Both the position numbers and the translations under genes were made by a program. Below are positions 624 through 36,942 of a stretch of DNA of 64,000 bases, piece by piece. The notes under the pieces are model-generated. The model saw only the letters and a list, made by a program, of their open reading frames with translations. It was not told the origin of the DNA and made no database searches. Every line of letters begins with the position of its first letter. The stretch's first letter is position 1. The stretch lies in contig JBEWZL010000066.1 in the NCBI GenBank assembly GCA_045837725.1, forward strand, positions 248,001 to 312,000. The letters run 5' to 3'. Origin of the DNA: Vermamoeba vermiformis. Lineage: Eukaryota.

Positions 624-3382
624 ATGGCGTACTTCACTGAACAGCGCAAGGGCGAGATTAATGACTTGCGCAATCTGTTGCAACAAGCACAACTCGATCG
701 CAATGACGAAGAAAAACAGAGGTAAATAAGAGCGTGCCTATATTATTTAAAATTCACCATTAAATTGTGCGCGCAACAACCCTGATCCTGTGCTGTTAGG
801 GAGTGCATTAAGAAAGTAATTGCTGCCATGACACTGGGCATGGATGTGTCGCCGCTGTTCAGCGAGATGATCATGGTACGCACTCCTATCATGTCCTTCA
901 ATATGAGATGATTGACACTATTATTATTACTGTTGACAGGCCTCCAACACACGTGACTTGGTGGTGAAGAAGATGGTCTATTTATATCTCACCCATCACG
1001 CGCGCGAACACCCTGAGACCGGTACGCGCTGTCTCGTATATAGATAGTCTAATAGATAGAATAATAATACATCATAATAATCAAACATACCACAACACCA
1101 TACCTCGACAGCTCACTAACATGGCCCCGCAGCGCTGCTCGCCATCAACACGCTGCTCAAAGACTACGCCGATGACAGTCCCATGGTGCGGGGCTTGGCG
1201 TTGCGTGCCCTGGCCTCGCTGCGACAGCGTGCCCTGGTGGAGCACGTGATTCTGCCGCTCAAGAGTGGCCTCGTCGATGTCTCGCCGTACGTGCGCCGTA
1301 CTGCCGTGCTGGGCTGTGCCAAAGTGTTTCAACTCGCCCCTGATACCATAAAAGGCAAGTATGGATGCTGCACGTGAGGGACTTCAGTGCCACTAATGCC
1401 CAAATATAGACCCAGCGATCATCAACAAGCTGTACGAGATGTTGCGCGACAAGGACCCGCAAGTGATGGTCAATGCCGCGGTGACACTCGATGAAATTCT
1501 CCGCAGCGACGGACGCGGAAATTTGGATTTGTCTCCCAGTGCCGGCATTCAACTGAACAAGAAGCTGGCACTGCACCTGATGGAGCGACTGAGTGCGCTG
1601 GATCAGTGGGGGCAGTGTCTCATCTTGGACTATCTCGTCAAGTACCTGCCCGATGAGGACGAGCTATTTCCTTTTATGGTAAGTCACCCACGCATGCACT
1701 TGCAGCTGCTGGGTCACTCACCGCTGCTAAATATAGAACATGCTGGACACGCGCCTGCAAAGTATCCACGTGAGCGTGGTGTTTGCAGTGATCAAACTGT
1801 TCCTCGCCTGGACCACGCACCTGCCTGACGTGCATCGGGCCGTGTACGCGCGTGTCAAACAGCCGCTGCTGCTGCTCATGCACGCCCAACACGCGGAATT
1901 ACACGCGGGGGTGCTGCACCACATCAAGCTGATCACGCATCACGTGCCCGATCTGTTCGCGCACGAGTTCAAGCGCTTTTACTGTCGCGTGTCAGATCCG
2001 CCCTATCTGCGCCGACTCAAGATTGACATTTTGACAGCTGTCGCCGATGCCAACAATGGCGCGCAGATCATCGACGAATTGTCCGAATATGTACATGACC
2101 GTCACGTGACTGTCGCGCAACAGGCCGTGCTCGCGATTGGTCGCGTCGGTGAAGTGACACCTGTCACTGAGCGTGCTGTCACCGCACTCACTGCCGTGCT
2201 GGACTACTTTGAGGCACGTGATCTCAACCAGGGTCACGCACGTGATCTGCGCGATGCCGCACTGATAGCCCTGGCAGATGTCTGTCGCGTGAGACCGGAG
2301 AGTTCCGTGCTGTCCTGTGTGCCACGTGTCTTGACCATTGCAGCACGTGATCGACAGCTGTCACCTGCCGCACTCACTGCTGTCGCTTCCTTATTAGGAG
2401 GACCAGCAGCCGTGCTCGACGAATCACCGTACGCCGCGGAGGATTGGGCGCGTCACGTGACCGATCTCGATGCGAGCTCACTTACCGCATTTGGACACAG
2501 TGCCACTGCACTCATGTTGAAGCGACCAGCGGAGGTCAAGCCCTGGTTGGGCGGACTGCTCGAGAACTGCATTGAACGCCCTGGTAAGTGCGGCTATTTT
2601 TAGACTGACTGGCGACTGACCGACACGCAGAGTCCAATGCCCTGGCACGTGATCAGGCCACGTGGCTGTACAACTTGCTGAGCTTGGACGTGGGCTTGGC
2701 GAAGCAAGTGATGTTCACTGAACAGGCTATAAATAGATTCGCCGAGGATCAGCCGCTGGAGATCATCGATCGGTTGTTCGAAGAATTCAATTCGCTGTCA
2801 GTCATCTACGGCGAGCCCTCCGAACGATTCATTGAAACACGTGCGGTGAGTGACACGCTGCAGGACCTGGTGCAGGACTCGGACTCGGAGGACGAGGAAG
2901 AGGAGGACGAGGAGAGCGATGAGGAGCACCCTGTGACACCTGTCAACACTGTCAGTCACGTGACACCTGTCAGTGGCCAGTCAGTGCCAGCAGTGCCACA
3001 GAGCAGCGTGAGCTTCAAGGCCCAGGTGAGCTTGGACGCGAAGAGTTTTGAAGGGCACTGGAAGACACTGAAGGAGTGTGGCTCGGTGCAGCTGGACACG
3101 CAGCTCGCGAGTGACAAGCCGCAGAGTGTGGTGGAGAGCATTGAGACGCAGATGAAAGCACAGCGCTTGCACGTGATGGCCAAGGGTGTGGTGAAACAAG
3201 TGATCAAATTCTACCTCTACACGCAGCTGGAGGGCTCAGACATGTTGGTGCTGGTGGAGATGATCGTTGATCTCACGCAACAGCGCTTGACGGCCAAGTT
3301 CAAGTCACCCAACCTCGATCCGGACTACTTGAGACAGTTTTTGTTGCACTTCCAAGCTGTCGTCACCCCAATCACTAAATAA
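624..3382 (+). CDS. AP4B1: AP-4 complex subunit beta (beta-adaptin), multi-exon
   Basis: Spliced: MAYFTEQRKGEINDLR; KKVIAAMTLGMDVSPLFSEMIM; DLVVKKMVYLYL; PMVRGLALRALASLR; YVRRTAVLGCAKVF; EEFNSLSVIYG; C-terminal appendage. GC-AG intron at 1355-1409. Confidence 0.9.
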
Positions 3383-3441
3383 ATCTTTTTATGGACATGG
3401 TAAAATTTGTACATTTTTACACGTATTTACAAACACCCAAG

Positions 3442-4181
3442 TTAGGGTAGGATCCTTTGGACTTCTTCTTTAAGTTTTGCACCCAAAGCAGCTCGGCCAG
3501 GTTTCGTCTCTTCCTCAACAATTTGGTCAACTAACGAACTAACGGTAGGAGGGACGACCTCCTTTTTCGGAGTCTTGTGGGTGACGTCAACCTTATTTCC
3601 GTCTCCCACTGATGCTAAGTGATCGATGTGCTCAAAATTGTTTGTTTTTCTATTTACAAGTTAGCGAGCTTCGAACATCATTAATTTACTTGCCTAGAAT
3701 TGTCGGAAGAGTTTCTGAAAGTGTCTCCACCCTTCATAACAGGCACCTGGTTATTGTTGTTGTTTGTCCCCTCTGGCTTCTGTTTGCGGATCGGGGGTGA
3801 GTTTGCCTCGGTGGTGCGATTTGCTTGATTCTTAAGTAGATCATCACAATATGCTTTCAGCTCTTCATATTTCTTTTTCCAGTTTGTACGCTCCTGTTGC
3901 TTTCTGCGAAAACTTTGAGAAAACACATAAATTAATCTGTTTTCTTACCCGTCGTTCTCAGAGGAAGGCTTAGAGGGTACTATGAACAACGTTAATGGCT
4001 TTTTAATCTGGTAAGTAGGTCTTAGTTTTATGGGTGCTTTTTTATCAGCTTCTCGAAGCTGGGCTTCGTCTCCACCTATCTGCTGTAGAAAGTCACTAAT
4101 TGAAGTGCCAAATGGCACCGAGTCGACGTATTCTTGTTTTGAGGTGGTAAAAAAATATTTAACTTCGATTGTTGTTGTCAT
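3442..4181 (-). CDS. 219-aa protein: possible ubiquitin-like N-terminal domain, short coiled coil, N-rich linker and RHIM-like motif (putative adaptor/sensor)
   Basis: Exons 4181-3949, 3912-3694 and 3649-3442 total 660 nt and stay in frame; the second intron is GC-AG. Motif IDHLASVGDGNKVDV lies at 3627-3583. Confidence 0.7.
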
Positions 4182-35455: not shown

Positions 35456-35595
35456 ATACTACTGCAACAAGCACCGTGTGGTCGAAGCATGATAAGCATG
35501 CATGGACTGCACGGAGGTTGACTGCAAATGCGAATAAATAGTTTTGTATCTCTCGATATTTGCATCATTTATTTACATGACTACCACTGAACTCC

Positions 35596-36942
35596 TTAGA
35601 ACACAAATTTCTGTTCTTCAGCGAGTTTGGTACTGCGCGCACTGCTCTCATTGAGCACGCACTTGACCACGGATTGGAGCACGTGACACGGATCAGTCAT
35701 TGCAGACATTTCTTTATAGTTCTTGGCACCTAATTGCTTCGCTAATGCCTTGCCTTGTCTGTCAAATAGGCTGATTAGATATCATTACTAGACAGGTACT
35801 AACGACATACTTGGCCGTGAAGGTCATGTGAGTGCCGCGGAGGTCAGTCTGCAGGCCCAACAAGATGACAGGTGGCACGTGCTGGCCATAGACCTCGCGC
35901 AGTTGAGGCCACCAGAGTGCAGTGACGTCATCAATGGACTGCTCATCGGCCACATTGAACGACAAGATCACTGCATCCGACCGCGCCAGACACGACCGAA
36001 CAGCTGGTTTGACACGTGTCATTCCCTTGTCGACACCAGTGACATCGGGCTCTAGCATGGTGATCACCCACGAGTTCTTGGTGACAAAGTAATTCTTTTT
36101 GAACACCAATGTGCCATCAACTGTGCGCGGTGCAATGAACGAGTCGTATTGTTCGGGGGCAATGAACTCGTCTTGGATCTGACTCAAGATCATTGCTGTC
36201 TTGCCCACGCCCTTCGAGCCCAGTACTGTCACGGTCACTGGTGAGAACTGTTCTTGAATTACCTAATTAGGAAATGTCAGTCCAAGCCATCAGTGTCACA
36301 GGCACCACTCACAGCAGCACGATAAGCACGCAGCAGTCGCGCGCGGTAAATAGCAGCAGGCGCGAGTGAGCCAGTGAGCTGCACTTGTTGGGCCCACAAC
36401 AGCTGCCACAACGACACTTCACGTGCGGCGAGGCCTGGCACTGGCACGTGGCCTGTCACGTGTTGATGCGAGCGACGCAAATCTTTGGTTGCCTTTTTCG
36501 GCAACTGGGCAGCGAGCATTGAAGCGCGATTGTCCCAGTCCACGTGCGGCCAGTGCGTGACGAGCAGTGCGCGCCACACTTCACCTGCACGGCGTGAGTG
36601 AATTGAAACATTAATGGGACATTGGACTCACCTGTGTGCGTCATGACTCGCAGTGCTCGACTGCACAATGAGACTGAAAAGAGCGACGATATATCTACGA
36701 AGAATTAGATCAATTATAGTGCAAGACATTCTAAAGCTGCGTACGGATCGCAAGTTATTTTTGTAAGTCACCAGAAAATTTTATTTATTTATTTAATATT
36801 TATTTTAATTGGCTCCAACAAATTTAAGAGCATTTCTCTACGAAATAAAAATGTCGTCATATTTACCTAAATATTTAATAATCCCTAAAAGTACTTCTGG
36901 TGGTAGATCCAACAAGAAACCTGTATTTTCAGCGGTATTCAT
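35596..36942 (-). CDS. F-box plus Rho-like small GTPase fusion protein
   Basis: Exon 1 MNTAENTGFLLDLPPEVLLGIIKYL joins DISSLFSVSLCSRALR (F-box), then WRAL. GTPase motifs GSKGVGKT, DVTG, PPVILLGLQTDLR, GKALAKQLGA..YKEMSA. No CAAX box. Confidence 0.75.

Follow-up and report, generated by a model that had tools for sequence, protein, structure and literature searches.

Highly iterated palindromes (HIPs) that take precedence over coding sequence are known from bacteria, chiefly from cyanobacteria, where the HIP1 word (GCGATCGC) shapes codon choice; their purpose is still debated. The abundance of HIP1 and its link to orphan methyltransferases are described in the accessible parts of two papers (PMC4390886 and PMC13756078). 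Among eukaryotic sites, those of TALE homeodomain proteins are relevant here: as given in the available sections of the respective papers, the crystal structure of the TGIF1 homeodomain has two monomers bound to opposite sides of TGACAGCTGTCA (PMC6158717), and the MEIS3 motif from systematic evolution of ligands by exponential enrichment (SELEX) is TGACAGGTGTCA (PMC5449588). Here we describe a palindromic 12-mer, TGACASSTGTCA, that is iterated in the genes of a 64-kb stretch of Vermamoeba vermiformis DNA (contig JBEWZL010000066.1, positions 248,001 to 312,000). It equals the two sites as those sections give them, in agreement with an earlier note on this DNA that had pointed out the match to a TALE dimer site. 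The region examined consisted of this whole stretch, called the window below and numbered from its first letter, and one 10.5-kb contig of a relative, L001.

Exact matches to TGACASSTGTCA numbered 23 in the window, the first at 2155–2166 and the last at 36010–36021, with none in the final 28 kb (36022–64000); the earlier note, which had claimed at least 23 copies and none past 36.1 kb, was correct in both respects and in the coordinates. The largest count in 100 dinucleotide-preserving shuffles was 0, and Markov models fitted to the first 36.1 kb predicted from 0.009 (order 0) to 0.46 (order 5) copies, with 1.7 at order 6. The central dinucleotide was CC/GG in 13 copies, CG in 9 and GC in 1, and one extra TGACANNTGTCA-type copy with the centre TC brought the number of TGACA-NN-TGTCA words to 24. 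TGACA half-sites are inverted in 23 of 23 copies, and the two-base spacer consists of G and C only in 23 of the 24 words. When spacings of 0 to 12 nt between TGACA and TGTCA were compared, 2 nt occurred 24 times and each other spacing 0–4 times, and the reversed arrangement TGTCAnnTGACA occurred once in the first 36.1 kb. Over the ten fixed positions we found 24 exact TGACANNTGTCA words, 9 with one mismatch and 34 with two, against 0.25, 3.6 and 30 in order-3 Markov simulations. Copies were clustered, with 7 of 22 gaps shorter than 170 nt (permutation p = 0.003), and their average density in the motif-bearing part was about one per 1.6 kb.

The flanks of the inner hexamer gave a further indication. 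Ordinary CACGTG prefers the flank A then C/T, whereas the TCA flank was found 20 times, 18 of them as the 9 two-sided pairs that constitute the 12-mer. Because TCA flanks are paired while ordinary CACGTG prefers A-C/T, the 12-mer is a class of its own, more than CACGTG with chance flanks. Taken together, the dyad symmetry, the constant distance between half-sites, the exact form that far outnumbers its nearest variants and the two-sided flank pairing point to a symmetric dimer that recognises duplex DNA; the fixed spacing and the paired flanks make the dimer the unit, as opposed to a half-site.

We then considered how the word is accommodated in proteins. Frame 0 is closed on both strands, as the 12-mer starts with the stop codon TGA, and frame 2, which reads D-[TR]-C-[HQ], is used by none of the exonic copies; the one form left to exons is thus xTG ACA SST GTC A, which is translated as [VLM]T[PRAG]V. 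The open reading frame (ORF) set comprised 35 stop-to-stop ORFs of at least 100 aa (9030 codons) in the first 36.3 kb. In this set, 16 of 16 [VLM]T[PRGA]V peptides followed by an A-initial codon were motif-coded, across eight ORFs, where codon usage predicts 0.13 (one of the 16, at 34633, is intronic); amino-acid composition predicts merely 0.74 such peptides. TPV, TRV, TGV and TAV with other neighbours, every occurrence of which was listed, use mixed codons, and no VTPV coded with other codons was found in the first 36 kb. Against the 20 copies observed in the ORF set, shuffling of synonymous codons within each ORF gave a mean of 0.56 and a maximum of 3 (n = 200), and shuffling of codon order a mean of 0.01. 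Since the enrichment survives these shuffles, VTPV has no other codings in the window and copies also lie in introns, a nucleotide-level force, rather than a peptide motif, is at work. The earlier note had claimed an imprint of VTPV/xTRV peptides left by a DNA-level process, and the imprint and the nucleotide part of that inference are both upheld by these counts. Of the two outcomes that it had named as refuting, a loss of the enrichment in codon shuffles did not occur, and VTPV kept with varied codons is absent within the window but present between species, as synonymous changes in L001.

All 23 copies lie inside transcription units. According to our own classification of each, 15 are exonic and 8 are in introns of 47–64 nt, and none is in the AT-rich intergenic spacers, which total about 5–6 kb as estimated from ORF gaps; their location is thus not that of promoter or enhancer sites. 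The exonic frame is uniform, 15 of 15 copies reading xTG ACA SST GTC A. The copies, and the stretch that bears them, are as follows (+ and - denote the strand of the gene).

2155–2166, centre CC: exon of a beta-adaptin-like gene (+), within the Adaptin_N match; VTPVT.
2934–2945, centre CC: exon of the beta-adaptin-like gene (+), hinge region; VTPVN.
2961–2972, centre CC: beta-adaptin-like hinge region, 27 nt past the 2934 copy; VTPVS.
7813–7824, centre CG: putative 50-nt intron 7790–7839 of a Nup85-like gene (-).
9953–9964, sense CC: exon, C-terminal tail of an ARM-repeat gene (-); VTPVK.
9995–10006, sense CC: exon, tail of the ARM-repeat gene (-); VTPVN.
10070–10081, centre GC (the sole one): exon, tail of the ARM-repeat gene (-); VTAVN.
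10118–10129, sense CC: exon, tail of the ARM-repeat gene (-); VTPVT.
13490–13501, centre CC: exon, unknown ORF 12409–13869 (+); VTPVK.
16747–16758, sense CC: inferred 64-nt intron (about 16715–16778) of a TRM5/TYW2-like gene (-).
24282–24293, sense CC: exon of a USP-type deubiquitinase gene (-), in RNA piece 24279–24559; VTPVK; 12 of 12 bases identical in L001.
24450–24461, sense CC: exon of the USP-type deubiquitinase gene (-), in an RNA contig; VTPVN; one synonymous base off in L001.
24590–24601, centre CG: 60-nt intron 24561–24620 of the USP-type deubiquitinase gene (-), with RNA joints in two runs and GT..AG ends.
26734–26745, centre CG: exon of an unknown gene (-), in RNA piece 26593–27076; LTRVI; one synonymous base off in L001.
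27025–27036, centre CG: exon of the same unknown gene (-) as the 26734 copy; VTRVT; two bases off in L001.
27869–27880, centre CG: 3' end of predicted 47-nt intron 27866–27912 (-); the adjoining RNA pieces stop at 27865 and resume at 27913.
28233–28244, centre CG: predicted 55-nt intron 28210–28264 (-); an RNA piece ends at 28209.
29700–29711, centre CG: predicted 53-nt intron 29693–29745 (-), near its 3' end; an RNA piece starts at 29746.
30185–30196, sense GG: putative 54-nt intron 30178–30231 (-); an exon reading would be DRCH.
32240–32251, sense GG: exon, ORF 31314–32795 (-), downstream of the MADS box, in RNA piece 31331–32341; MTGVN.
34633–34644, centre CG: 54-nt intron 34620–34673 (+), with RNA joints in two runs.
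34759–34770, centre CC: exon (+) bounded by introns that end at 34673 and start at 35012; LTPVI.
36010–36021, centre CG: exon of a Ras-like GTPase gene (-), within the Ras match; MTRVK.
1–36600: stretch mostly of genes rich in G and C at third codon positions (GC3-rich), with iterated CACGTG (88 copies to 36100 and 4 more to 36541).

Pieces of RNA contigs run through, or flank via mapped introns, six of the exonic copies (24282, 24450, 26734, 27025, 32240 and 34759), and the remaining exonic assignments are based on long ORFs and Pfam matches. RNA contigs in two runs skip 24561–24620 and 34620–34673, each holding one copy (24590 and 34633), which confirms the statement in the earlier note that both exons and introns bear the word. 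The copies at 27869, 28233 and 29700 are in predicted introns of 47–55 nt that start with GTAAGT and coincide with ends of RNA pieces (27865/27913, 28209 and 29746, respectively); the intron status of 7813 and 30185 was assigned from splice signals that restore the open frame, and that of 16747 by reading the TRM5 sequence nearby. In the span 16500–36499, 14 introns were checked with RNA contigs of two runs and were 46–97 nt long with GT..AG ends. This span holds 37 RNA-contig joints overall, 15 of them listed and one being a 375-nt skip in a DNA run, and thus at most 36 introns of about 57 nt each, roughly one-tenth of the DNA. As half of its copies (7 intronic, 7 exonic) are in introns, introns are several times denser in copies. 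Intronic centres are CG in six of eight cases, and the two asymmetric ones are split between CC and GG on the sense strand, whereas the exonic sense-strand centres are CC 10, CG 3, GC 1 and GG 1; exons and introns together give CC 11 versus GG 2.

A second palindrome, CACGTG, is iterated in the same genes; it was overlooked in the earlier reading of this DNA, and its iteration is even stronger than that of the 12-mer. The first 36.1 kb contain 88 copies compared with 18.1 and 20.7 expected from order-1 and order-2 Markov models, an excess of about 4–5-fold, and the rest of the window contains 17. In ORFs, 77 copies were present versus 27 after synonymous shuffling. CACGTG encodes 36 of 46 His-Val pairs (36% expected), and xCACGTGx encodes 30 of 58 [STPA]R[VADEG] triplets (6% expected); the codon bias in the right half has the same direction and is weaker. 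In L001, CACGTG is the top over-represented hexamer (18 versus 4 expected), and 13 of the 25 window copies in the syntenic span are intact there, compared with 22.6% for hexamers generally.

The genes recognised in the motif-bearing left part encode beta-adaptin, Nup85, an ARM-repeat protein, PRMT5, a TRM5/TYW2-like methyltransferase, a dihydrouridine synthase, a USP-type deubiquitinase with a CUE domain, a MADS-box protein and a Ras-like GTPase, and those in the right part PARP, SAM/PB1/PAS domain proteins, a kinase, WIF and 7tm_3 fragments and an ABC transporter. PRMT5 is about 50% identical to that of named species, and the ARM protein shows 85% BLASTP identity to a Vermamoeba vermiformis transcriptome protein (EukProt). 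Stretches of the window are also present in sequencing runs from water, root and biofilm and in runs labelled with six other organisms. The right part has a lower GC content at third codon positions (GC3) than the left (0.50 versus 0.61), its codon usage differs too, and its short introns are of the same kind. The CpG observed/expected ratio is about 1.0 in both halves, with no trace of methylation-driven decay, and CpG decay as the reason for the empty right half was accordingly rejected.

Both words follow GC3-rich genes. Spearman correlations with GC3 were 0.54 for 12-mer density and 0.66 for CACGTG density over all 65 ORFs, and 0.50 and 0.62, respectively, in the left part alone. GC3 is at least 0.60 in every ORF bearing a 12-mer copy, and low-GC3 genes of the left part (e.g. 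4503–5613 and 19389–19943) have no copies. This correlation and the copy-free low-GC3 genes indicate that the distribution of the motif tracks a gene property rather than one contiguous domain, and they do not support the proposal in the earlier note that the motif accumulates in particular chromatin domains. Differences in GC3 usually stem from expression level or local recombination.

Several other features of the window were recorded. Composition shifts at about 36–40 kb: the TG/CA observed/expected ratio is 1.35 on the left and 1.17 on the right, the CC/GG ratio is 0.65 and 0.81, and the gene types pass from housekeeping to signalling. The short introns (14 checked) start with GTAAG, GTACG or similar and contain the branch-like words CTGAC, CTAAC and TTGAC. 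TTCA[CG]TGAA, often followed by C, has 13 copies, 12 of them in the left part (633, 2714, 7760, 8224, 8446, 8720, 17149, 17271, 17287, 28947, 32109, 32143 and 58524); the copy at 17149 is inside the confirmed intron 17137–17186, where its sense reading is TTCACTGAAC, about 12 nt upstream of the 3' splice site, and the word is possibly an extended branch-site word. A tandem 24-nt coding repeat beginning AAGAGACTAAGA is present at 13007, 13031, 13055 and 13079 (13007–13100) in the A-rich unknown ORF 12409–13869. The composite word CCTAATTAGGAAAT(G/A) occurs at 8085, 36262, 38094 and 63973, with CACGTG within 12 nt after three of the four. Two of these copies are at ORF ends, and the word could represent a common promoter module that contains a TAATTA palindrome of the homeodomain type.

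A metagenome scan with the deubiquitinase confirmed one locus among 296 pattern matches, the 10.5-kb contig L001, which is syntenic with 17149–27649 of the window at 75% nucleotide identity. The syntenic span contains two exact 12-mers in L001 and five in the window; the second exact L001 copy matches TGACAGATGTCA in the window, and the L001 counterpart of the 24590 copy falls in an intron that could not be aligned. L001 has five [VLM]T[PRG]V peptides, and each is written in motif or near-motif codons, with GTC for the final Val; two are exact, and the other three accordingly look like decayed copies. Orthologous peptides were kept with one or two synonymous changes. The ratio of exact words to relics differs by lineage, being 24:9 in the window and 2:3 at the five [VLM]T[PRGA]V sites of L001. 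A cluster of three to four copies in the deubiquitinase gene is common to both, and which copies are perfect differs. These alignments show that the 12-mer predates the split of the window species and the L001 species and that the cluster has been retained with turnover.

Protein comparisons extended this to the ARM gene, whose fast-evolving tail keeps its VTPV islands in four relatives at 79–85% identity; insertions and deletions among these relatives comprise 2 aa or whole repeat units, and none comprises 4 aa. Two Vermamoeba vermiformis isoforms of the ARM protein, P0134 and P0135, differ by a 13-aa unit flanked by TPVKHT repeats, a deletion between two motif-type peptides. The search for adaptin homologues returned two distant matches at 31% identity in which VTPV is not kept, and no close orthologues were found. 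A contig search with PRMT5 yielded no relatives, and a search with a pair-of-motifs pattern yielded at least 117 loci, none of which was recognised as amoebal (117 judged by composition and centre, 10 by sequence). These loci consist of bacterial operator-like pairs and (CCTGTCA)n heptad repeats and have no bearing on the finding: many alphaproteobacterial and actinobacterial loci have paired TGACAGCTGTCA or TGACACGTGTCA operator-like sites, and contigs L003, L015, L022, L096 and L098 of bacterial metagenome-assembled genomes yield the 12-mer by chance from tandem heptads, (CCTGTCA/CCTGACA)n. Among the 19 loose ends in the matches listed (35 more exist), contigs of other samples diverged from the window 10 nt or less from a copy in 7; such ends are at 16743, 16764, 28224, 29716, 34769 and 36008 and may reflect either brief chance alignment of other motif-bearing loci or rearrangement. 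A 16-nt piece of one loose end does not occur in the window.

The excess at the nucleotide level, the frame rule, the presence in a relative and the exonic and intronic placement are observed; from them we infer a protein that reads the 12-mer, its TALE identity and an effect of its binding. The 12-mer would be a duplex-DNA site for a symmetric-dimer protein, with a MEIS/PKNOX/TGIF-type TALE homeodomain as the best candidate, and exact copies would be kept or restored in the transcription units of GC3-rich genes; we hold this tentatively, as plausible though short of probable. A sequence-specific protein would bind the word on double-stranded DNA as a symmetric dimer, and copies would be preserved or re-formed inside those units. 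In exons the frame filter admits only [VLM]T[PRAG]V, whereas introns escape it; their copies are several times denser and almost always of the fully symmetric form TGACACGTGTCA. We would guess that the copies mark constitutively used genes from within, at the level of chromatin or transcription, and do not act as a classical promoter element. Binding sites often cluster, as the copies do. Proteins of the class are present in another amoeba: the accessible parts of two papers report that Acanthamoeba Meis has a homeodomain highly similar to that of animal Meis (PMC3957477) and that Acanthamoeba has PBC and MEIS proteins (PMC11586516). No homeobox domain was matched among the 66 window ORFs scanned.

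Several observations weigh against this reading. The AT-rich spacers, where classical promoter sites are expected, have no copies. The centre GC, that of the TGIF1 crystal site, is the rarest here (1 of 23). The exonic sense strand has CCT 10 times and GGT once, which a symmetric DNA reader does not predict and which we can only ascribe to a protein-level tolerance of Pro over Gly. Another word, CACGTG, behaves alike, which a general process favouring palindromes would explain just as well as two separate readers. Conservation in L001 carries little weight: identity is 44 of 48 over motif positions compared with about 80% in the coding background, and 13 of 16 at third positions compared with a background of 62%, which is not significant, and only one of the four alignable window copies is perfect in L001.

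The rival that survives best is a HIP1-like drive without regulatory meaning, in which repair, methylation-linked or conversion bias makes near-matches to TGACASSTGTCA and CACGTG exact and copies accumulate as a by-product. We consider it possible but doubtful. It explains the CACGTG parallel at least as well, that is, two unrelated palindromes with the same codon-level imprint in the same genes, and it agrees with the presence of copies in exons and introns alike and their absence from promoter-like spacers. The excess of exact copies over one-mismatch relics in the window (24 versus 9), together with the excess of relics over exact copies in L001 (3 versus 2), is what would be expected if the drive operated in one lineage but was weak in the other, and a density that tracks GC3 might reflect a recombination- or repair-linked process. 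However, the CpG ratio bears no sign of methylation-driven decay, neither the clustering of copies nor the exact agreement with an established transcription-factor dimer site follows from this account, and a drive would be expected to act also in low-GC3 genes and spacers, where there are no copies.

A bolder form joins a drive to the protein-read site. Vermamoeba-type amoebae may run a eukaryotic counterpart of HIP in which repair or selection is coupled to reader proteins, a TALE dimer for TGACASSTGTCA and a second one for CACGTG, and would write and keep exact palindromes in the transcribed DNA of constitutively used genes, as a gene-body mark that overrides codon and even amino-acid choice. 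We regard this as a rather unlikely, speculative extension. Such a mark might also enable the cell to distinguish its nuclear DNA from the DNA of giant viruses that infect it.

Recognition at the RNA level, with the word read in pre-mRNA or mRNA as a signal for splicing, export or stability, appears decidedly unlikely to us, even though 23 of 23 copies are within transcription units, intron density is several-fold that of exons, and the sense strand prefers CC to GG (11 versus 2). In three introns the TGACA half is at the expected branch-site position, and it fits the branch-site words CTGAC and TTGAC of confirmed introns. However, five of the eight intronic copies precede another branch-like word, CTGAC or TTGAC. 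A reader of RNA would not require a DNA palindrome that is perfect and fixed in spacing, some copies have GG on the sense strand (30185, 32240 and L001 3307), and the orientation bias is attributable to Pro versus Gly in exons, as the asymmetric intronic copies are 1:1. Six motif-bearing introns fold no better than their shuffles (z from -0.76 to +1.08), with no consistent pairing of the halves and no shared fold, and an RNA hairpin was rejected on these grounds.

A protein-level peptide motif (VTPV/xTRV, for example a Thr-Pro phosphosite) whose codon identity came from recent duplication could account for the VTPV islands in the fast-evolving ARM tail and for the peptides that L001 keeps where synonymous changes break the DNA word, but it is very improbable, being contradicted by the uniform codons of 16 of 16 compatible peptides in eight ORFs (0.13 expected), the eight intronic copies, the unrelated flanks and the lack of other VTPV codings in the first 36 kb. 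That a tiny mobile element left the words as copies or footprints, or that they are in-frame insertions of 12 nt, is scarcely credible: 12 nt is a multiple of three and, near copies, certain contigs from other samples depart from the window sequence, but the 30 bases on either side of copies are unrelated, with no common flank or target duplication, orthologous L001 sites differ by substitutions with no 12-nt gap, and the relatives' ARM proteins have 2-aa and repeat-unit indels and none of 4 aa, so that a transposon, a miniature inverted-repeat transposable element and an insertion origin are all contradicted.

We return to the protein-read DNA site and to what the finding would mean. Our literature search, with subscription journals outside its reach, yielded no account of highly iterated palindromes in the nuclear genome of a eukaryote, nor of this 12-mer in amoebae; the papers on highly iterated palindromes that it returned all concern cyanobacteria. 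A clear eukaryotic case would be useful: the word is a known transcription-factor dimer site, introns provide an internal control free of protein constraint, and a related species shows decayed copies, which together would make selection for binding versus sequence-specific drive directly testable. It would also show words of the transcription-factor type shaping proteins ([VLM]T[PR]V, HV and xRx) at large scale in a compact eukaryotic genome.

Compared with E-boxes and G-boxes, the sites of basic helix-loop-helix (bHLH) and basic leucine zipper (bZIP) proteins, the 12-mer has inner six bases, CASSTG, that are E-boxes, and CACGTG is iterated in the same genes; it differs in that ordinary CACGTG prefers the flank A-C/T and the 12-mer has TCA. 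A given bHLH is not generally known to recognise both CG and CC/GG centres. A single bHLH E-box does not account for the mixed centres (CG 9, CC/GG 13, GC 1) and paired TCA flanks (9 pairs, 20 flanks). DNA uptake sequences (DUS/USS), Chi and the FtsK-orienting polar sequences (KOPS), which are words selected at the DNA level and tied to strand or replication direction, resemble the 12-mer in constraining the peptides of host genes and differ in being asymmetric and bacterial. The TALE homodimer sites of TGIF1 and MEIS3, as far as their published descriptions were available, share with the 12-mer the TGACA half-site, its inverted arrangement and the two-base S-S spacer, whereas the 12-mer occurs in exons and introns, outside promoters, at the density given above, and prefers CG and CC/GG to the rare GC. 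HIP1 is alike in being an exact short palindrome, orders of magnitude above expectation, found in genes and outside them and common to related genomes. In the same manner, the 12-mer is far above every composition model, occupies coding and non-coding DNA with codons bent to it, and is present in the relative L001. Unlike HIP1, it has a eukaryotic host with spliceosomal introns, is 12 bases long with a degenerate S-S centre, is confined in the window to GC3-rich genes and absent from spacers, and equals the dimer site of a eukaryotic transcription factor.

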